A DNA stretch of 61,177 nucleotides, filler included, from Basidiobolus ranarum (taxonomy: Eukaryota), in the NCBI GenBank assembly GCA_040143965.1. It is 11 parts of 11 records of this genome, joined end to end, with 100 filler letters (N's around TTAATTAATTAA, not from the genome) between each part and the next. Parts side by side here need not be neighbours in the genome. Positions count along the whole stretch, not along the records: positions 27,898 to 33,368 come from JASJQH010008462.1; 10 more parts are not named here. One strand, written 5' to 3'. Below are positions 8,687 to 55,558 of the stretch, in pieces (positions within the stretch are counted from its first letter, which is position 1; each line of letters begins with the position of its first letter). The notes beneath the pieces were generated by a model. The model saw only the letters and a list, made by a program, of their open reading frames with translations. It was not told the DNA's origin and searched no databases. Made by a program: the position numbers and the translations under genes.

Positions 8687-9699
8687 TTATTCAAAACCAT
8701 ACTTCTTCTTGGTTAATTTAATAATAAGGTCAGGCATTAAAAGTTTCAACCATTGAATCGCGTAGTACTTCATAGGTAAAATGATTTCTCTTTCACAGGC
8801 ATCTGATGCTTCGATAACCTTTTGAGCAACAGACTCTGGACTTAGTTTTCCTTTTTTAGATCCGTGCACCTCTTTGTTTGAAGTGTCTTTCACATCCACA
8901 GCAGATGAACGTAAATCAGTATCAATAGTACCCGGGCATACTAAACACACGTGAACTCCATATTTCTCAACCTCCATGCGGAGTGAATCAAAGAAACCAT
9001 TGAGTGCGTGCTTACTAGCTGAATATAAACTTCTGGAAGGAGCGCCGGCCTTACCACCCATCGAAGATATCACCACAACATTACCTGATGATTTAATTAA
9101 AGCTGGAAGGAATGCTTGTGTAGCTAAGACTGGACCAGTGAAGTTGATGTCCATAATCTTGCTTAATGAAGTAGCCAAGCTCACGCGAGAAGCTTCGTCA
9201 TTTGTGTCAATTTCCTGTGTAGCTTCATTGTATCCAATGAGTTCGACGAAAGGAAGAACAGATATAACTCCGGAGCAAAGAATTAGCGTATCAACTCCAC
9301 CCATCTTTTCCAGTGATACATTTTTTACTTTCTCGAGGTCTTTTTCCTGAGTAATGTCAGCGACAACATATTCAACGGTAGAAGTAGCTCCCAGAGACAG
9401 GCACTCATCTCTAACTTCTATCAACTGGGCTTCTCTTCTGGCACATATGATAAGTTTAGCACCCCGCTGTGCATATTTCAAAGCTAATTGTAATTTTGAA
9501 AGATGAATATACATTGGGAAACAACCCATTATAAAGAGAACTGTATACCTAGAACTTTTCCAAGACCGGAAGAGGCACCAATAATAACCACACGCTCCTC
9601 AGTAGGAGGGAGGCGTGGTGCTGGTGTCGCCCATGAGTTTTTCACCCAGCTTAAAAACGCTACAGAGCTTGCAATTCCAAATATCGACAAGTAAGACAT
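8687..9699 (-). CDS. Short-chain dehydrogenase/reductase (DHRS7/11beta-HSD-like), 315 aa; exons 9699-9549 and 9483-8687
   Basis: N-terminal hydrophobic segment and VVIIGASSGLG NAD(P) motif in exon 1. 65-nt GT-AG intron at 9548-9484. Catalytic S...YSASK and CPG motif. Confidence 0.92.
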
Positions 9700-19129: not shown

Positions 19130-20614
19130 ATGCCATCCAAAGCGGAGGTTGGTGTGGAGAAAACCAATCGGAAATCCTTTTTTCGTCAACATAAGTGGAA
19201 ACTAGCTGCCTTAGCAATCATTATCATCGTTGCAGTAGTTTTACTTGCTGTACTAATACCCAAGAACAAGTCTAATACAAACCACGCTAACTCCGGTGCT
19301 GATTCTAACGGCGACACCATCAAGCCAGACCCTACTACTAATTTATATGATGATACTGCAAGACCTAATTCTCGAGTTCCTCCTTTAAATGAGCCGTTTC
19401 CTTATGGAAAAATCCCAGTTAGAGGGGTTAACGCTGGTGGATGGCTTGTGCTTGAACCTTTCATTGCCCCTTCTTTATTTGAAGGATTTCAACCTGAAGA
19501 TGGTGTAATTGATGAATGGACTTTATGTCAGAAACTTGGTAAGGAAGAGTGTAAAAAGAGAATTACTAAGCATTACGAGACATTCTATACCGAAGCGGAC
19601 TTTAAACAAATGGCTGAAGCTGGACTTGATCATGTACGTATTCCGATCGGATATTGGGCTGTAGATATTCAAGATGGAGAGCCTTTCATCGATGGCTCTT
19701 GGGAGTACCTACTTAAAGGTGTAAATTGGGCACGAAAGTATGGACTTCGTGTTATGGTAGAGTTACATGGCGCCCCTGGGTCTCAAAATGGCTGGAACCA
19801 TAGTGGTAGATCTGGAGAAGTGAGATTTTTGAATGGACCTAACGGACAACAGAATGCTGATCGTACAATGGATGTTGTAGTAAAGGTAGCCAGCTTCTTC
19901 TCCAAGCCTCAGTGGAAAAACGTCGCACCTCTTTTTGGGGTGTTAAATGAACCCGTGATTAATAGGCTCAATAAGAGTGTTGTTGATGAATGGTACTATC
20001 AAGCCTATCAAAAGCTTCGCAATGTAACATCTCCTGAAGAACCTGTTCTAGTTTATCACGAAGGATTTATCGGGTTGGACAGATGGTCAGGGACATTCCA
20101 AAAACCTGATTACAAAAACGTCTGTATGGATGTACACAACTACATCATCTTCGATGTCAATCTAGTGGCCATGTCAGAGCAACAAAAGCTTGATTTTGCA
20201 TGTAATACCTGGAAGAAAGATATCAGCACAAGTAATCAAAACTTTGGTTGGACAATGGTTGGTGAATTTTCCATTGCTAGCAATGACTGCGCAAAATGGC
20301 TGAACGGGATTGGACTAGGCACACGCTGGGATGGCACTTTCCCCGACAATTTAGGCAACCCTCTATGCCCTACGAAGCCCAAGTGCAGTTGTGAAGGTGT
20401 TGATGACTGGAAAAATTTCACCCCAGAGTACAAGGAATTTTTGAGCAAGTACGGCCAATTCCAAATGGAGGCATTTGAATCAAGCTTTGGATGGTTCTTC
20501 TGGACATGGAAAACTGAGAACCATGTCAATCCACACTGGGATTATCAAATTGGATTAGAACAAGGGTGGATGCCAAAGGATGCTGGAAATCGTCAAATTA
20601 AATGTCCCGTCTGA
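19130..20614 (+). CDS. Glycoside hydrolase family 5 exo-beta-1,3-glucanase (Exg/ExgD-like), type II membrane-anchored, 494 aa, intronless
   Basis: N-terminal TM helix. RGVNAGGWLVLEPFI.PSLF, DHVRIPIGYW, LHGAPGSQNGWNHSG, acid/base NEP, nucleophile GEFS, GWFFWTWK. Confidence 0.95.
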   Translation: MPSKAEVGVEKTNRKSFFRQHKWKLAALAIIIIVAVVLLAVLIPKNKSNTNHANSGADSNGDTIKPDPTTNLYDDTARPNSRVPPLNEPFPYGKIPVRGVNAGGWLVLEPFIAPSLFEGFQPEDGVIDEWTLCQKLGKEECKKRITKHYETFYTEADFKQMAEAGLDHVRIPIGYWAVDIQDGEPFIDGSWEYLLKGVNWARKYGLRVMVELHGAPGSQNGWNHSGRSGEVRFLNGPNGQQNADRTMDVVVKVASFFSKPQWKNVAPLFGVLNEPVINRLNKSVVDEWYYQAYQKLRNVTSPEEPVLVYHEGFIGLDRWSGTFQKPDYKNVCMDVHNYIIFDVNLVAMSEQQKLDFACNTWKKDISTSNQNFGWTMVGEFSIASNDCAKWLNGIGLGTRWDGTFPDNLGNPLCPTKPKCSCEGVDDWKNFTPEYKEFLSKYGQFQMEAFESSFGWFFWTWKTENHVNPHWDYQIGLEQGWMPKDAGNRQIKCPV

Positions 20615-27897: not shown

Positions 27898-28008
27898 ATG
27901 GAAAGCTAGCCCATAAAACAGCACTCGCATTGCAGCTCGGTTGGTTAAATGAAGGACTATAATGCTGTAAAGTATTGCCTACTTTGGTGAGCGGTAGTCT
28001 AACACTCA
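27898..28008 (+). repeat. 111-bp terminal direct repeat (copy 1)
   Basis: ATGGAAAGCTAGCCC...GTCTAACACTCA, identical to 33258-33368. Offset is 5360 bp. Confidence 0.97.
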
Positions 28009-28149
28009 ATTCTTGTTCCCCAGTTATTTTCTTTGCTCCAAAGAGAATACTATGTACAACATTATAAGGAGCAGAGTATCAAAAGGTGTTGTTGGTGTTC
28101 CGCTACAATTGATACTCAAGTACCCTTACACTTCTTAAGAACATAAGTG

Positions 28150-28222
28150 GCCACCTTAGCTCAGTTGGGCGAGCGTCAGACTGAAGATCTGAAGGTCCTG
28201 CGTTCGATCCGCAGAGGTGGCA
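28150..28222 (+). tRNA. tRNA-Phe-GAA: tRNA-Phe(GAA)
   Basis: Full cloverleaf with TCAGA-CT-GAA-GA-TCTGA anticodon arm, GTTCGATC T-loop and oligo-T terminator. Position 21 is C. Confidence 0.96.
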
Positions 28223-28456
28223 TTCTTTTTTTTTCTGATCTAATTTATGTCTCACAATTATTACATCAATGTTTTTTGCAGGAAGCCCGACATCTATATA
28301 GAATTGTGCATCATGGATACTGACTGCTGTTTGTAGCAATTTGATGCATAGATTTCATTGCATATGGTATATAGGCTTAACCGAGTGTCTTCCATGTTTG
28401 ACATAGTCAGGTTCTCTTTATTCATAGTAGTACATATTTATAACGATGTGTAACAT

Positions 28457-28529
28457 GCCCGGCTAGCTCAATCGGTAGAGCGTAAGACTCTTAATCTTAA
28501 GGTTGTGGGTTCGACCCCCACGTTGGGTG
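28457..28529 (+). tRNA. tRNA-Lys-CTT: tRNA-Lys(CTT)
   Basis: GCCCGGCTAGCTCAATCGGTAGAGC; TAAGA-CT-CTT-AA-TCTTA. Confidence 0.97.
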
Positions 28530-28772
28530 TTATTTTTATGCTCGTCAACTTTATCCAAATATTTTCTTTCCGGTGTAGTCCACTTTATCCAGTTAGTAGG
28601 ATACTTCTACATGTCAGAGAGTGCCTGCGATTTCATCGTTGTACTCTTTTCTATTCCATTTTTACTCTGGTATTACTGTGCTGATATTCTTGATGCACAT
28701 TTCAGCCCTAGCTGCCCGATTCTATAGTTTGTTTTGACAAACTGCAGAATAAATGCAAGTAAAATTGTAAAA

Positions 28773-28845
28773 TGGAGGACCTGGGTATCGATCCCAGTGC
28801 CTCTCGCATGCTAAGCGAGCGCTCTACCATCTGAGCTAGACCCCC
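28773..28845 (-). tRNA. tRNA-Ala-AGC: tRNA-Ala(AGC)
   Basis: GGGGGTCTAGCTCAGATGG...; CTCGC-TT-AGC-AT-GCGAG; G3:U70 pair; GATCGAT T-loop. Confidence 0.97.
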
Positions 28846-29217
28846 ATGTTCTTTAGTTTGAGCCCGACATGCGAACATATCTTACGCGGTGTGTTAAGTA
28901 TATATCGTTTTCATCGCATCACTCCGAGATATTGTGACAAACTCGTGGTATATCTTTGACTAATACATTTTCCTGTCGGCTAGTCCATGGGGGTACTCTA
29001 CTTGTGTGAATGTACTCATAGGTGCTGGTTGCTTCACCTTCCAACTAAGTATATGAGAGAAACACCATAAAGTGAGACTTTACTTACACATGCTTCATAT
29101 TGGTGCGAGTAAAAGTAGTTACTTTCACTTGGTATGTGTCCTAGTGAATGTTCACTATATTAAATTTTGCCAAAAAGTCATGGATAGCAAGAAATTCGGC
29201 AGCAAAAGAAAATCAGA

Positions 29218-29291
29218 TGTCTTCGCTCGGATTCGAACCGAGGACCGTCTGTGTGTTAGACAGACGTGATAACCAACTACACCACGAAGAC
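29218..29291 (-). tRNA. tRNA-Val-AAC: tRNA-Val(AAC)
   Basis: GTCTTCGTGGTGTAGTTGGTTATCAC; TCTGT-CT-AAC-AC-ACAGA. Confidence 0.97.
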
Positions 29292-29432
29292 CTCCTTATA
29301 ATGGATTAGTATTCTTTTCTTCATAGCTACATCACAATTTCAGCTGAGCACTTGCCATACTTATTTGCAGGTTAAGCACTCCTCGTACCCAATAGATATA
29401 TATATATGTAATAAACTTTATATCATGTAAGT

Positions 29433-29504
29433 GGGGGGTTGGCGCAACGGTAGCGCGTTCGCCTCCAGAGCGAAAGGTTGCGTGTTCAAATCACGCACTC
29501 CTCA
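29433..29504 (+). tRNA. tRNA-Trp-CCA: tRNA-Trp(CCA)
   Basis: TGGCGCAACGGTAGCGC D-arm; TTCGC-CT-CCA-GA-GCGAA; upstream TATA-rich tract. Confidence 0.96.
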
Positions 29505-29705
29505 CTTCTTTTTGTTCCATCGCTACTTTGATTAGCATATTAAATACTTGCTTATTTCGAGTCTGAAAAAGATTTTATAATATGCAGACCCCAGTATTAA
29601 TATTTATTAGTATTTACTTTACTCATTTTTCTGTTGGGAATTTCTTTGGTAAGTTTTTAGAGACATGTCAATCCAAAAACCTATACGTATGAAAAGTAAA
29701 AGGAG

Positions 29706-29777
29706 TTCCCCATCGGGGAATCGAACCCCGGCCGTCTCGGTGAAAGCGAGAAATCCTAACCACTGGACCAATGAGGA
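29706..29777 (-). tRNA. tRNA-Glu-TTC: tRNA-Glu(TTC)
   Basis: TCCTCATTGGTCCAGTGGTTAGGAT; TCTCG-CT-TTC-AC-CGAGA. Confidence 0.97.
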
Positions 29778-29963
29778 CTTTGTTGGTTGCTACTCTATAG
29801 TTCTTCCTATTTTCTGAAAAGATTACAAAAACATTAGGTATCAAGCTTCCCTATTCTATCACAGAGACTATCCTTGCTTTCTGTTAAACAGACGATTAGT
29901 TAGATCTGGTAACAAATCGAAATTTATTTTATATATTTAGTCTTTGGACTCCATCTTAAATTA

Positions 29964-30034
29964 GCCATTGTAGTATAGTGGCAGTACATCGCGTTGTGGC
30001 CGCGTCGACCTCGGTTCGATTCCGAGCAATGGCA
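29964..30034 (+). tRNA. tRNA-His-GTG: tRNA-His(GTG)
   Basis: GCCATTGTAGTATAGTGG; CGCG-TT-GTG-GC-CGCG. G-1 is not encoded. Confidence 0.96.
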
Positions 30035-30291
30035 TTTTCTTTTAGTTTCATAATAAAATAAATTACGCTGACCTTTTTAAGCTTATCATTCAATCAGCCT
30101 TTTCATGGAATATCCTTGCAACCATCAATGATGCATAAAGTAGTGTGAGTGATACTTGGAGGGTTTTATGCTTGCTAGAAATTATTAATCTCTAAATGCC
30201 AAGTGAAGGTCTTTCCTAGCTAGTCATCAACCTCTTCCAGTCATAGGAGATTATCATTAGGGTGAAAGTAAGGCATTGAGTATCAGTAATT

Positions 30292-30374
30292 GGTAACATG
30301 GCCGAGTTGGTCTAAGGCGCCGCACTCAAGTTGCGGTCTCGTAAGAGGCGTGAGTTCGAATCTCACTGTTATCA
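30292..30374 (+). tRNA. tRNA-Leu-CAA: tRNA-Leu(CAA)
   Basis: CCGCA-CT-CAA-GT-TGCGG; long variable arm CTC-GTAA-GAG; no intron. Confidence 0.97.
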
Positions 30375-30533
30375 TTGCTTTTGAGCCATTTCACTAGCGG
30401 ACTGTACATAGGAGTAAGAAACATTTTTTACTAATATGCAATAAAATGATCGATTTCAGCTTTATAAGAAGAACACAGTCAATACTACCTACTAGTAGGT
30501 TCAATACTGAGAGAAAGCGGTTGTAGGTATATC

Positions 30534-30605
30534 GGTTTCGTGGTGTAACGGTTAGCACCCAGGACTTTGAATCCTGTAATCCGAGTTCGATTCTCGGCGA
30601 GACCT
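30534..30605 (+). tRNA. tRNA-Gln-TTG: tRNA-Gln(TTG)
   Basis: CAGGA-CT-TTG-AA-TCCTG; T-run terminator immediately downstream. Confidence 0.97.
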
Positions 30606-30726
30606 TTTTTTCTATTATCCCCACAATATTGGTAGACTCACAAAATACCCATGTGTTATCTATATTTGTTAGTGATCATGTAATTTCCCTAAATATAGTT
30701 GTAAAAACAAATAAACAATTGTATTG

Positions 30727-30808
30727 GACAACATGGCCGAGTGGTTAAGGCGTATGACTAGAAATCATATGGGCTCTGCCCGCGCAGGTTCAAATCCTGC
30801 TGTTGTCG
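30727..30808 (+). tRNA. tRNA-Ser-AGA: tRNA-Ser(AGA), first gene of a dimer
   Basis: TATGA-CT-AGA-AA-TCATA; variable arm GGGC-TCT-GCCC; G73. Confidence 0.97.
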
Positions 30809-30813
30809 AATTT

Positions 30814-30887
30814 GCTCGCATAGCTCAGTTGGTTAGAGCGTGGTGCTAATAACGCCAAGGCCGCAGGTTCGACCCCTGCTGTGAGCA
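30814..30887 (+). tRNA. tRNA-Ile-AAT: tRNA-Ile(AAT), second gene of a dimer
   Basis: TGGTG-CT-AAT-AA-CGCCA; starts after a 5-nt spacer behind tRNA-Ser; followed by TTTTTT. Confidence 0.97.
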
Positions 30888-31358
30888 TACTCTTTTTTGT
30901 TTTGAATACTTCCTGACATTTCATACTTTACGCGTTGAAAAAGTTAACATGGATCGGTGACCTCCGGCTTCAATTTATTTTGCTTATCTGGTCAATTTCA
31001 CCTCGTTGACTCCTTTTGCCATAAGTAGAATTTGCAACACTTTCAAGAACTACAGAGGTGTAGATCTTGAATGTGCCTTCGAGTGAGAGAGTGAGATAGG
31101 AGATGAACCATACCATCTCTCTGCTCGGACTAGGAGGATGGTGCAAACTGTGTGCTGGGGTATCTTAGTTTTTTGATGATATGGCCAGAGTGGTCGCAGG
31201 TAATATATATAATTTTCTTTATTTAAAATATTCTTTGTAAAGTAAATTAATAGTTAAGTTGTGGTGCCATGAATGATAAATGGTGCTGATGAAGCCTGTA
31301 AAATGGATCGGCACTTAAAGATTAAAATGATGGCAGACGATCCATCAAAAATTAAGTA

Positions 31359-31431
31359 CGAGCATACCAGGGATCGAACCTGGAATCTCCTGATCCGTAG
31401 TCAGGCGCCTTATCCATTTGGCCATACGCCC
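31359..31431 (-). tRNA. tRNA-Arg-ACG: tRNA-Arg(ACG)
   Basis: GGGCGTATGGCCAAATGGATAAGGC; CCTGA-CT-ACG-GA-TCAGG. Confidence 0.97.
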
Positions 31432-31619
31432 GTATTCAGTTATTCCTGGAGTGATCTCATTAACAATTCTGCATGCATTCAGATACAAGGATGAACACAC
31501 CACTTTTGCTCCAACGATCCAGATACTGCAGAAAAACTTAGTAGAGAAATATTCACTCTTATTAAACATGATTAAACCATTACTCTATAACGGTTCTAAA
31601 TAGCAAAAAGTATATCCAG

Positions 31620-31691
31620 TTCCGCATCGGGGAATCGAACCCCGGCCTTCTCGGTGAGAGCGAGAGATCCTGACCACTGGACCAATGCGGA
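31620..31691 (-). tRNA. tRNA-Glu-CTC: tRNA-Glu(CTC)
   Basis: TCCGCATTGGTCCAGTGGTCAGGAT; TCTCG-CT-CTC-AC-CGAGA. Confidence 0.97.
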
Positions 31692-32008
31692 TATACGTAT
31701 TCATGCAACGTTTCTGAATTCTTACCGGAAATTTCTACCACTGGCTTATTGTGTTCCCCCTTTCTTTCTAATACTATTCCTTGAGGTGCTATACCAGACC
31801 CTTGGGAGCTCCATGATAGAATGATCATTCCAGAGTGAGATTTCTACTTTCTACTTAGAACGTATGGTTGCTGTTAAATGGATCTGAATGCTCTTGAGAG
31901 TGTTGGGATAAGGCCTGCACTGGAAGTAATCCATCGATCAATCCCAAGATAGTTAGAAAAAACTTGTTAAAAGACATTGAAGTTAGTTGAATCTACTTGT
32001 TATTAAAT

Positions 32009-32079
32009 GCATACTTGGTTTAGTGGTATAATTACCGCCTGCCACGCGGTAGACCGGGGTTCGATTCCCCGAGTATGCA
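32009..32079 (+). tRNA. tRNA-Gly-GCC: tRNA-Gly(GCC)
   Basis: GCATACTTGGTTTAGTGGTA; ACCGC-CT-GCC-AC-GCGGT. Confidence 0.97.
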
Positions 32080-32725
32080 ATTCTTTTGGGGAGATTAAAG
32101 ATATCTAATCTATCGAGCATTCATGTATTATTGTTGCTTTTATGCCGTTTTCCCTGAACCTCAGCAGAGCTATAATATCAGTACTGGTTTCTCTCCCGGG
32201 AGTTGGCAAGAACTGTTTATCTCATTTTCAATCTTGTCAGTAAGCATATCCATGCGAATGCTTTGCCTTTAAACCAAAATAGACATACTACAGAACCACC
32301 GCACAATTAACATTTCTTACGGACTAGGGTTGGTGAAGGTATAGATATATCCTTAGGGCTCAATATGGAGTATCTAGCAAAATTGGAAATACAAAATTTT
32401 CTCATAACACGCATATATTTTAACTATCGTAGCTGCATATACCTAGGTTTTGTAGCAGTTTCGAACCCGATGATCAACTGTCCTGGTCCGATGCACTAAC
32501 CGAGGAAACTATGGCGTCCCACATCTTACAAAATGATAATCGTACTTATATACCTCTAAATGCATAGCTATCCCTGATGTGAGCTGTGTTTAATCAAAAG
32601 ACATTTGTGCACCAATTTCATAGAGAGACAGCCTCAGATATAGTAGACTTCACTCTCTACGCTACCCTTCTTGCGCTTTCAATTGAAAGAGTCTTTTTAA
32701 AATACATCACGAGAAACAATATATC

Positions 32726-32798
32726 GCCTTCTTGGCTCAGTTGGCAGAGCGTCTGCCTAGTAAGCAGAAGGTCGCTGGTTCAATTCCGGCAGAAGGCA
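32726..32798 (+). tRNA. tRNA-Thr-AGT: tRNA-Thr(AGT)
   Basis: GCCTTCTTGGCTCAGTTGGCAGAGC; TCTGC-CT-AGT-AA-GCAGA. Confidence 0.97.
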
Positions 32799-32967
32799 TC
32801 CTTTTTATTCTAATTTTACTACTACCTGCATGTTAATTTTGGGTCAACCATGCTTAGCAAGAGAAAGTTGGATTAGTAGAGGCAATTTACGTTTACAAAG
32901 TCAGTGTTCATAGCAGCAAAAGTTTTATATAGAGAGCTGATCAAAATTCGGTCGATTCTAAAAGTAA

Positions 32968-33050
32968 TGAAGAGAGTGGGATTCGAACCCACGCCTCCGA
33001 AGAGATCACGGCCTTAACGTGACGCCTTAGACCAACTCGGCCATCTCTCC
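32968..33050 (-). tRNA. tRNA-Leu-AAG: tRNA-Leu(AAG)
   Basis: TCACG-TT-AAG-GC-CGTGA; long variable arm with TTCG loop. Confidence 0.97.
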
Positions 33051-33257
33051 ATTTCTGGAGGCCTGCCTTTATTTGGCTCATATTCTTACCATCACCTTCA
33101 CATGTATTAGAGCATCACAAACAGCGCACCAAGCTCTTTGAGATCTCTCGATTAATTGACAGCAGAGCCTGTGTTGTTACCAAAATTTTGGATTTTTGTC
33201 TGCTTGGGGGTTTGCTGCACCTTTCTTTCGTATTATTGGAATATTTGCCTTACTACC

Positions 33258-33368
33258 ATGGAAAGCTAGCCCATAAAACAGCACTCGCATTGCAGCTCGG
33301 TTGGTTAAATGAAGGACTATAATGCTGTAAAGTATTGCCTACTTTGGTGAGCGGTAGTCTAACACTCA
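33258..33368 (+). repeat. 111-bp terminal direct repeat (copy 2)
   Basis: Identical to 27898-28008. Confidence 0.97.
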
Positions 33369-46870: not shown

Positions 46871-49800
46871 TTAAGGAAGAGATGTCAAGAATAAATTTTT
46901 GCAATCACTTGAAAAGAACTCTTCGAAGTCTCTAGAGAAGTCAGCGATTTCCGAGCTAACTGATCCGGTCAGTGCAAAGTAAAAATCGCGTAGTAAAGGA
47001 TGCAAATTACAGTGCTCTAATTTAGCAAGAGTGCTCTTTAATTCTACATTGAAAGGAGGTGTTAATCAACATAAATATACGTTTGGGAATGACCGCATTG
47101 AATGAATACAATTTGCATACCTGAGATAAAGCGCTCTTCTGGGGAAACCTTTTTAGCTAAAATAATTATCGAAGCTATTCTAAAAGCTTCTAAAAATACC
47201 GTGGCATGACCGGTAAATCCGAATGGACCAAAATTTCTGGACTATAGGGAGAAATATCAGGCAAATTAATGGTTTTATATTATTTGTATGGGCTCTATAA
47301 GCAAATAAGGTACCTGCTCCTTGGTTTTTTCTGAACTTTCAATCAATTGATTTAGCTTGGTAATGGCTTGATATCCTTCAAGGAGAAAGAGGTTTCTTAG
47401 GGAGTCATCGACGATTTGTTGCTCCACTAACTTTGCCAAGGTGTCTCGGAGTACCTGAAATATCAGTTGCGTATCAATCAAATCCTCTTTATAGATATTA
47501 GGTCTTTCGGCAGCAAAAAGAGCCTGATTTGGATTGAGCTCATGCTTTATGATAGTTTCTATCGTGCCAAAAAATCATGTTAAATACGTTGCTTGAATTG
47601 CTTTGAAAACATCTCTATACTTACCGAAGGACCCTCCTCCGTTTAATGTGTCCAAATAGGTTCTCATTAATTTTAGTGAGGTAGGCTCAAGTTTGGCAGC
47701 ATTTTGACAACATATCTCGGCAGCTCGCTCCGAATTCAATGGTGTTTCCAACTCTCCAATCTTTGAGATAAGCTGAGCGCTCTCTTGACGAATATCTATA
47801 TCATCATCTTGCAACAAACGGATGAGTACGCGATATACGTCAACCAAGATCTCATTCTCGGCTTTGCATGTATTACTTGTACCCCGCGACTTTAGAGATT
47901 GTTCGAAACGCTGGATTGAGGCAAGGGCTACTTCACGCAACGATTCAGACATGGATTCTTCGCTGTATTTCATGACATACTCGGACCAAACTTTTGAGGA
48001 TTCCAGGATCTCTTTTCCGTCTAGCCCGTATTCGTTTTTGTGAAGCCACATATAGTTTACCAAAGATCCGATCAAAGGGAGAGTGAATTCGACAACGGTC
48101 AATGATCTTGTACTACTCATCATGTTCATCAAGTGGTTCCAAAATTCACTGATACTAAAGGTGATGTCTTTCTCATTGTATGCTTGAATTACAACAGGTA
48201 TGAAATTGCCACGGGAAAGCAAGCTGATTTCAATCTTGAAGCATTCCAGGTTAGTTTCGCCAGCATATATCAATTGAGCTAACTTTAACCATAGTCGGTT
48301 CATACTAAACTTAGATTCCGTCTGGCTAGTACGCTTTTCTACTAATCGATGAAGAGTCCTAAGCGTAGATAATCGAACTTCATAATCTGGATCTTCTAAT
48401 AGCGCTTCTATTATTTCATCCGCACCTAATTTTACGAAGTCTAACTCTTGACTGGCCGCTTGTTGAGTAATGATCTTGGAAGCATGCCGAAGCACCAAAT
48501 ATCTGCCAACATCAACATTGTTGTCATTTATCTGCTCAGCAAAAACATCGCGGAATGCATATAAAAGAACATCCTTTCGGAGTTCTGAGAAAGCATCATC
48601 TGCCACTACAGTAAGCCTATTTTTGCTTTGATCAATGATGTTGCATGTGATCCAAGCGGGTTCGAATACAAATTCTGACATCATATCGTAGAATACGGCG
48701 CGAGTGATACCACATTTGTTATCGCCGAGTAATAGTCTTAACTTAGACTGAAAATGAACGGCAATACAATTGATTACATCTTTCTGTACTTCGTAATTGA
48801 CTACGTCGTACAAATGCCCTCTAAGGAGTGACAAAAGTTGAACTAGACGGCCATGAAGTTTGTTTTGCGATTGAATGTTAATATCACTCCAGAGCATTTC
48901 GATGGTGGTAACCAAGTCATTGGTGACTACTAGCGGTACGAGAGCACGGGCTGCCATTTCTCGAGTTTTGTATATGCATCCGCTGGCACACTCAAGAACT
49001 GCAGGGACAAAAGCCGACATAGTTAATGCTGAATCAGGCCCATCCATAACTGAAGGCTGTAATCGTGAGAGTAGTGTCAAAACTGGGTATAGACCAGGGT
49101 GAACAACAGGGGAATCAAGTTCCTTTGATCTTAACATCTGCTCTACAGCGAGTTCCAATTCTGTTAGCAAGAAAGGATGCAGTTTGGGAAACCGAGAGAA
49201 GAATTCTTTGCCGGTCATTGTATTCATTGAATGGTGTTCATCTTTGGTTTTCTTTGTCCCAAGCGTTCTTTGTAACAATGTGGAGAAAAGCATCACGGAA
49301 CAGTTGCGGATCGCCCAACAATCGGAAGAGAAACCTGAAATGGCTAACATGAGACCATCCTCAACATAGGATAATACTTTGGTGCCTTGCTTGGCGTCGG
49401 TAAACATCTGCCTTAAAATATTGAAAGCGTGAACCTGAGGTAGATCAGTATTCTGATTGGCTTCTATTGAAGGCACTTCTCGAGCAATCTTGAACGCTTT
49501 TTTCATGGTGTAATTTAAAAGGTACGTGCTATCAGCCGGTTCACTGCTTACAATAGCTAAAATACACAGTGGAATTCCTGCACTTCTACGTGTAACAGAG
49601 ACCGAATTAGAGAGAATATTATCTAGGTTTTCATTTAGCCATGTTTTAGGTACAGCTGAGTGATCAGAATCTGGGGCAGTCAATAGCCTGGAGCAAACGG
49701 CTATGTAGCCTGGATATACGGCAGAAAAGGCACCACGATGGCGGATTGAAGTTAATAAAGTGCGAAGTAAATTGCCACCTTGAATTACATGTTCATAACT

Positions 49801-50063
49801 CATTACGGGGAGAGTATCGCTATTCCCATCATTCAAGGGAGCACGAGAAAGAAGAACACCAAGTAATGTGCTTGCTTCTTTGACGGCTCTCCAGCAATAA
49901 CTTAATATGGCTCGATTCTCAGAGCCTATACTACTTTCGTTATTTTGGGGAGTAGCATCTTCAATCATCTCTTCTATCTCTTGGAAAAGAGGATTGTTAC
50001 CTTCAGGTGAAGGGTCGGATAAAATATTAAGAGCAGTAGAGCACTCTAAATTAGCTAAATCAA
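46871..50063 (-). CDS. TRM732: THADA/Trm732 armadillo-repeat tRNA methylation cofactor (DUF2428), 5' truncated; large exon to 47625 plus about three small 3' exons
   Basis: CWRAVKEAS, RHRGAFS, TRRSAGIP, QVHAFNILR and WAIRN. After the GTAAGT donor at 47624 the frame continues LFAAERPNIYKED. The final exon and stop (46871) are less certain. Confidence 0.88.
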
Positions 50064-55006: not shown

Positions 55007-55114
55007 TGTTACTATTTGAATTACTAAAACTTTATTTAAGCAATAATCTTGGTAGAATACAGGGTTTTATTACTGTTTTTTAAAACTAGCTGTTAAACAT
55101 TAACTTGTAATAAT

Positions 55115-55196
55115 GATGCTTTGGCCAAGTAATTAATACAATGCCCTGCCAAGGCATTTCCCTATGGGAGCACAGGTTCAAATCCTGCATGCATCA
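55115..55196 (+). pseudogene. tRNA-Ser (probably GCT) pseudogene
   Basis: 82 nt with long variable arm and GGTTCAAATCC B-box. D-loop GG lost; anticodon now reads GCC; no CpG. Confidence 0.75.
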
Positions 55197-55558
55197 GTTT
55201 TTAGCATTGAATACTTTTGAATAACCAGAGAAGTTGGTTTTGAATTGGACATGACTCCTAGTGGCTCAGCATTGGTTATATTTTGGCACAGACACAGCTT
55301 TGTCTGCCAATGTAAGCACATACTAAAAGCACATGTCATGTAACACACCTCTGGGGATCTCATCCTGATAATACAGACTCTGCCGGTACACTTTTAACAA
55401 TTGATAGCAACTGAAGAAATCTACCACTAAACAAAGATAATGTCATCTAAACTTCTCAAATTATTCAAGTTACCAAGCTTTGCACATGTTTCTTTAGCCA
55501 GAAAGTATTTTGTCAGAGACTGAGAGCTGTGATCCCCCAAAAGTGCAAAGACAAAAAA

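Follow-up and report, generated by a model that had tools for sequence, protein, structure and literature searches.

The window analysed here (positions 1–61177; 61,177 nucleotides of Basidiobolus ranarum, assembly GCA_040143965.1) is composed of 11 contigs of 5,456–5,484 bp, which follow one another in order of size with N44-TTAATTAATTAA-N44 spacers in between. The contigs are unrelated to one another and were merely size-sorted and spacer-joined, so adjacency across a spacer is meaningless. The sixth of the 11 contigs (27898–33368, 5,471 bp; JASJQH010008462.1) is the subject of this analysis. It carries a dense cassette of transfer RNA (tRNA) genes, its last 111 bp repeat its first 111 bp, and it had been singled out in an earlier description (hereafter, the original prediction) as a candidate tandemly amplified or circular 5,360-bp cassette.

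With ARAGORN, 17 tRNA genes were identified in the window, and 16 of them map within 27898–33368 (10 on the + strand and 6 on the − strand). The Rfam family RF00005 recovered the same 16 of 16 genes with scores of 53.4–69.3 bits (gathering score 29), and the agreement of both methods bears out the 16 intact genes and the strand distribution of the original prediction. From the left end (Rfam bits and the position of the 3′ T-run in brackets; all genes were called by ARAGORN), tRNA-Phe(GAA) (28150–28222, +; 63.2 bits, T9 at +4) and tRNA-Lys(CTT) (28456–28530, +; 64.9 bits, T5 at +4) are followed on the − strand by tRNA-Ala(AGC) (28774–28845; 53.4 bits, T4 at +1) and tRNA-Val(AAC) (29218–29291; 64.7 bits, T4 at +6). 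Then come tRNA-Trp(CCA) (29433–29505, +; 65.1 bits, T5 at +5), tRNA-Glu(TTC) (29705–29777, −; 61.1 bits, T4 at +5) and tRNA-His(GTG) (29964–30034, +; 61.9 bits, T4 at +1). The + strand also encodes tRNA-Leu(CAA) (30291–30375; 56.8 bits, T4 at +5), of type II and devoid of an intron, tRNA-Gln(TTG) (30534–30605; 63.5 bits, T6 at +1), tRNA-Ser(AGA) (30727–30808; 64.5 bits, no T-run at its 3′ side) and tRNA-Ile(AAT) (30813–30888; 65.8 bits, T6 at +6). The right part contains tRNA-Arg(ACG) (31358–31432, −; 60.8 bits, T5 at +8), tRNA-Glu(CTC) (31619–31691, −; 62.8 bits, T5 at +11), tRNA-Gly(GCC) (32008–32080, +; 65.6 bits, T4 at +5), tRNA-Thr(AGT) (32726–32798, +; 69.3 bits, T5 at +4) and the type II tRNA-Leu(AAG) (32967–33051, −; 56.1 bits, T4 at +5).

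Removal of the duplicated end leaves a single 5,360-bp unit (27898–33257, unstranded), as defined by the end-overlap comparison and by composition. This unit is made up of 1,205 nt of tRNA genes (55.8% GC) and 4,155 nt of spacer (35.5% GC), so that the genes occupy 22% of it (1,205/5,360 nt) at a density of 3 genes per kb. The spacings between genes are 4, 121, 141, 158, 168, 186, 186, 199, 233, 243, 256, 316, 372, 469 and 645 bp, with 458 bp at the closure; 12 of the 16 values, closure included, fall in the range of 160–650 bp that had been given as typical. With 16 different tRNA genes in 5.36 kb, the cluster is unusually dense for a fungus even if it is single-copy.

All 16 genes look like functional nuclear RNA polymerase III (Pol III) genes for cytosolic tRNAs, as judged from their sequence features. 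A34 anticodons are present in 7 of the 16 (Ala-AGC, Val-AAC, Ser-AGA, Ile-AAT, Arg-ACG, Thr-AGT and Leu-AAG), and A34 in these families is the eukaryotic inosine-wobble set. No gene encodes CCA (0/16) or contains an intron (0/16), and the base at −1 of tRNA-His is A, so that G−1 is not encoded. A run of at least four T residues starting at +1 to +11, as expected of a Pol III terminator, follows 15 of the 16 genes, the exception being Ser-AGA. The A34 anticodons, the lack of encoded CCA and of His G−1, and the oligo-T terminators thus mark eukaryotic nuclear genes for cytosolic tRNAs. A mitochondrial origin was considered and rejected in view of the A34 anticodons, the Trp-CCA gene, the oligo-T terminators and the 55.8% GC of the genes.

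The tRNA-Ser(AGA) gene ends at 30808 and the tRNA-Ile(AAT) gene starts at 30813/30814. Both are on the + strand, separated by 4–5 nt with no run of four or more T residues between them, and T6 is found at +6 after Ile-AAT. By this layout the two genes are a putative dicistronic tRNA pair, with Ser-AGA as leader and Ile-AAT as trailer. Dicistronic tRNA pairs are described as common in hemiascomycetes, with genes down to 3 nt apart of which only the second is followed by a terminator (Acker et al., 2008, PMC2566860). The Ser-Met pair of Schizosaccharomyces pombe, according to the same source, yields one dimeric precursor from the promoter of the leader, which is processed into two tRNAs. The Ser-AGA/Ile-AAT pair has the same spacing and terminator layout as these yeast pairs, but the partner of Ser is Ile-AAT in the Basidiobolus cassette and Met in the S. 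pombe pair so described.

The two tRNA-Glu genes share 88% identity over 86 nt (29692–29777 and 31606–31691, both −), and the similarity extends ∼13 nt beyond the 3′ end of the genes, as if an old duplication within the unit had been followed by a change of anticodon. No common upstream promoter motif was found among the 5′ flanks of the 16 genes. Runs of at least 6 nt composed of A/T only are present at −45 to −16 in 9 of the 16 genes, a count that has no control set and from which no claim is drawn. The A+T fraction is 0.70–0.74 at −40 to −21 and 0.61–0.63 in the adjacent bins, a mild rise only and likewise without a control.

The sole other tRNA-like match in the window is at 55114–55197 (+), on another contig, and scores 34.8 bits with Rfam vs. 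53–69 bits for the cassette genes. It is 82–84 nt long, has a long variable arm, is called Gly(GCC) by ARAGORN, has T5 immediately 3′ and is dissimilar to the tRNA-Gly(GCC) of the cassette. Either a pseudogene or a Pol III element derived from a tRNA would be a possible identity. Being weak, atypical and unlike the cassette gene, it was of no use as a link between the cassette and the fungus.

The longest stop-to-stop frame of the contig has 99 codons, and the six longest frames gave no Pfam match at E ≤ 1, in keeping with the earlier statement that no protein gene is present. The accompanying statement that there is no transposon debris holds as far as searches of open reading frames (ORFs) and Pfam reach; short element fragments could escape these. 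A permissive Rfam scan of the contig (E ≤ 1) revealed no 5S RNA, small nuclear RNA (snRNA) or other family, and all sub-threshold rows overlapped tRNA genes. The spacers contain 35.5% GC vs. 36.7% for the other 10 contigs, and the correlation of their trinucleotide profile with that of each other contig was 0.886–0.943, when the contig-to-contig range was 0.876–0.991. By composition only, the cassette fits the same genome as the other contigs.

The 111-bp terminal overlap is exact. Its left copy (27898–28008, unstranded) is located within the 458-bp divergent spacer that separates Leu-AAG (−) from Phe-GAA (+), and the right copy (33258–33368, unstranded) is 100% identical to it at an offset of 5,360 bp, which reproduces the identity originally reported. 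When all contigs were compared with themselves by script for end overlaps of at least 15 bp, only 1 of the 11, that at 27898–33368, was positive. De Bruijn-graph assemblers write an isolated cycle as the unit plus k bases, and an exact overlap of k-mer size between the two ends of a contig is therefore how a cycle in such a graph shows itself. The earlier proposal that the exact end overlap denotes a graph cycle is accepted on this ground. For a cycle to form, reads must lead from the end of the unit back into its start, which implies either two or more copies placed head to tail or a molecule that is circular. We consider it likely that the cycle is real.

On balance, the explanation that we regard as most likely, and as moderately probable, is that the contig is one unit of a collapsed head-to-tail tandem array in the Basidiobolus nuclear genome. 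The 5,360-bp unit would be repeated head-to-tail in the nuclear genome, and a short-read de Bruijn-graph assembler would have collapsed the repeat to one unit plus an overlap of one k-mer (111 bp). Each unit would provide 16 independent Pol III genes, coding for cytosolic tRNAs for 14 amino acids; 15 genes would have their own internal promoter and T-run terminator, and Ser-AGA and Ile-AAT would be made as one dimeric precursor. Under this proposal the closure would reflect tandem chromosomal copies, the copies would be many and their genes expressed, and unequal exchange or gene conversion would keep them identical.

Several points limit the case for a chromosomal array or weigh against it. 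First, the self-overlap demands only two or more tandem copies or a circle, and it carries no copy-number information. Second, the contig ends after 111 bp and no second copy is read through, so that closure rests on the assembler graph. Third, entry and exit branches would normally be expected in the graph around an array within a chromosome, so that a free circle would explain a clean cycle just as well. Counting in favour of the array, a flank-free contig would arise most easily when the coverage of the loop greatly exceeds that of the entry and exit edges; a lack of any flanks, as in a circle, would have the same effect. Fourth, the short tandem repeats typical of Entamoeba units are not present in this unit, in which Tandem Repeats Finder reported three trivial repeats only, of 2.0–2.3 copies. 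Finally, a related cassette was found nowhere in the collections searched, although these blanks weigh little, as none of the collections is built from fungal genomes.

The searches behind this last point used two patterns for the Ser-Ile junction, one with exact acceptor stems and one degenerate, with the conserved T-arm and the D and anticodon arms. Neither pattern matched in the contigs of the JGI metagenome collection, which is not based on fungal genomes, and the degenerate pattern had no match in viral contigs or in prokaryote genomes, neither of which targets fungi. None of the 10 cassette ORFs that a gene caller might predict (0/10) had an exact match in a collection of 15 billion proteins that is not based on fungal assemblies. 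When homologues of the 99-codon spacer frame were sought, three candidates shared words with it, none at E ≤ 0.01.

A different origin of the overlap would be a single-copy cluster whose identical ends are an assembly by-product, either because a repeat about k long, dispersed or local, flanks a unique 5.2-kb tRNA cluster on each side or because the path was wrongly closed on itself. No duplication beyond the 111 bp was found within the contig, as this explanation would have it, and it is plausible for a fungus to have a single-copy cluster of densely packed tRNA genes, as the fission-yeast centromeres illustrate. However, a flanking repeat would give identical ends only if its length were almost exactly k; a longer repeat would become a node of its own and the ends would be offset. 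Furthermore, 31-mers sampled every 10 bases from the end stretches of the contig had no match in the remaining 54.7 kb of the window, a tiny sample, and the lack of self-overlap in the other contigs (0/10) argues against a systematic assembly artefact. We consider a single-copy cluster unlikely.

It is quite improbable that the contig derives from a free circular 5,360-bp DNA, be it an extrachromosomal circle excised from an array by recombination between units or a stable episome. A cycle without flanking branches is exactly what a circle would produce, without being diagnostic of one; the release of circles from tandem arrays is common, and in some protists the ribosomal DNA (rDNA) is carried on circles. 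An Entamoeba rDNA episome is mentioned in the account of PMC2652664. On the other hand, the unit bears no replication or partition gene, given its longest frame of 99 codons and the absence of Pfam matches in the six longest frames. Among the matches listed, the literature on tRNA-gene arrays contains no tRNA-only episome, and we know of none in any eukaryote. If present, a circle would most likely coexist with an array instead of replacing it.

It is very improbable that the contig is foreign DNA of a different eukaryote present in the sample, for instance an amoeba that has tRNA arrays. The contig lacks a protein gene that would link it to Basidiobolus, and arrays of the Entamoeba type assemble in just such a way, but its spacer GC and 3-mer composition are within the range of the other contigs, and Entamoeba units, as described in PMC2652664, have up to 5 tRNA genes and very A+T-rich spacers vs. 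16 genes and 35.5% GC here.

Codon usage was sampled in three Pfam-supported ORFs, totalling 1,571 codons, and also in the full set of eight window ORFs with at least 150 codons (2,398 codons). Under generous wobble rules, the cassette tRNAs could read 61.0% of the codons of the three ORFs and 59.5% of those of the eight. Fourteen amino acids are served, and there is no cassette tRNA for Asp, Asn, Cys, Met, Pro or Tyr. The commonest Lys (AAA), Leu (TTA) and Arg (AGA) codons of the sample likewise have no dedicated reader in the cassette. With six amino acids unserved, these top codons unread and ∼60% of the codons covered, the suggestion that the fungus keeps "its major tRNAs" in this array was overstated. 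The set is large yet incomplete, so further tRNA loci must exist, dispersed or in other cassettes; if the unit is indeed part of an array, a second cassette with tRNAs for Asp, Asn, Cys, Met, Pro and Tyr is conceivable.

The step from a graph cycle to an rDNA-like array that sets tRNA dosage is plausible as a hypothesis. Copy number alone, however, would not establish dosage, to judge from the tandem tRNA clusters of Arabidopsis, which are reported as silenced (PMC7544208). That a large share of the cytosolic tRNA genes of Basidiobolus resides in rDNA-like arrays of the 16-gene cassette, few in number or even single but high in copy number, with the copies homogenised by recombination, appears doubtful. 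Were it true, recombination could also shed 5.36-kb circles, an organisation in the style of Entamoeba would have arisen independently in a fungus, and a structural role would be possible, for instance at chromosome ends as in Entamoeba.

Protein-coding ORFs are present elsewhere in the window. Two of them code for ordinary enzymes, a glycosyl hydrolase of family 5 (cellulase; 19130–20614, +) and a short-chain dehydrogenase (8687–9529, −). An open frame of 797 codons (47575–49968, −) corresponds to the C-terminal part of the tRNA-methylation regulator Trm732/THADA, with DUF2428, TPR_Trm732_C and HEAT matches. Its three best matches, of at least 120, are to Basidiobolus ranarum (74% identity) and to two proteins of B. 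meristosporus (73% and 70%), and the next is at 46%. These matches mark the source of the window as an early-diverging fungus of Basidiobolus type. The two B. meristosporus copies, at 73% and 70%, hint that such genes are duplicated in Basidiobolus.

The tandem array is a well-documented form of tRNA gene organisation in eukaryotes, although a rare one. If the array is real and multi-copy, it would be a fungal example with an independent origin of tandem tRNA organisation. The 16 different genes per unit compare with up to 5 in Entamoeba, 5 in the human 1q23.3 repeat and ∼8 in Xenopus and, if confirmed, would be more distinct genes than in any array compared here; to our knowledge, this would be the richest tRNA repeat unit of any eukaryote. 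An array of this kind would offer a culturable system in which to address (i) how a Pol III array is kept uniform; (ii) expression vs. silencing, as in Arabidopsis; and (iii) the relation of copy number to tRNA supply and codon use. It would also mean that tRNA gene counts based on short-read assemblies are serious underestimates for such fungi. If single-copy, the locus would still be an unusually dense fungal tRNA cluster, yet a modest curiosity only.

In the full-text literature searched, which comprises neither supplements nor subscription journals, no nuclear tandem array of tRNA genes was found to be reported for any fungus, nor was any account found of how tRNA genes are organised in Basidiobolus, in line with the earlier remark that such an array was not known to be described in fungi. 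The companion statement that model fungi disperse their tRNA genes needs to be qualified for fission yeasts, in which about one third are in centromeric clusters: the centromeres of Schizosaccharomyces osmophilus are reported to hold 96 tRNA genes, or 33% of all those in the genome (Jia et al., 2023, PMC10085805). These dense mixed clusters include Arg-ACG, Glu-TTC/CTC, Leu-CAA/AAG, Ile and Ala, as in the cassette. As described in that source, however, they lie inside centromeric repeats and act as boundaries, and are not a head-to-tail repeat of one cassette.

Outside fungi, the arrangement would have precedents in Entamoeba, in the human and mouse 1q23.3 repeat, in Arabidopsis and in Hydractinia. 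The 3.18-kb tRNA repeat of Xenopus laevis contains ∼8 genes per unit and is repeated in tandem about a hundred-fold, as measured experimentally. It is a multi-tRNA unit like the cassette, but is found in an animal and has about half the genes per unit.

The human 1q23.3 tRNA repeat is described as a 7.3-kb unit with 5 tRNA genes, present in 9–43 units per allele (Darrow and Chadwick, 2014, PMC4041453). The human and mouse repeat resembles the cassette in its kilobase-scale unit with several different tRNA genes on both strands, and the tRNAs are given as the only transcripts of 1q23.3 (PMC4041453). It differs in that tRNA genes make up <6% of a GC-rich unit that is bound by CTCF and contains retroelement fragments, according to the same account, whereas they occupy 22% of the cassette unit, in which no element fragments were detected by Pfam in the six longest frames.

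The Ser-Tyr-Tyr cluster of Arabidopsis is reported to consist of 27 tandem units (Hummel et al., 2020, PMC7544208; PMC2886086). The tandem Ser-Tyr-Tyr and Pro clusters are described as transcriptionally silenced, and Ser-Tyr-Tyr as heterochromatic (PMC7544208). The Ser-Tyr-Tyr unit, as so described, has three genes for two amino acids vs. 16 genes for 14 amino acids in the cassette. Evenly spaced arrays of near-identical tRNA copies and spacers, with tens to hundreds of copies per RNA type, are reported in Hydractinia and Nematostella by Schnitzler et al. (2024, PMC11067881), who call tRNA arrays unusual outside Entamoeba. The arrays are described there per RNA type, and the cassette unit, by comparison, mixes 16 tRNA genes.

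Entamoeba is reported to have 25–28 types of unit, with 1–5 tRNA genes each and, in some, 5S or snRNA genes (Tawari et al., 2008, PMC2652664; 2026 HiFi preprint 10.64898/2026.07.06.736064), and the spacers are described as very A+T-rich, with microsatellite-like repeats. The likeness to the cassette lies in tRNA genes on both strands and the absence of protein genes; the Entamoeba units, as described in these accounts, are arranged head-to-tail and collapsed in short-read or Sanger assemblies. The Basidiobolus cassette differs from them in its 16 genes and in spacers of 35.5% GC.

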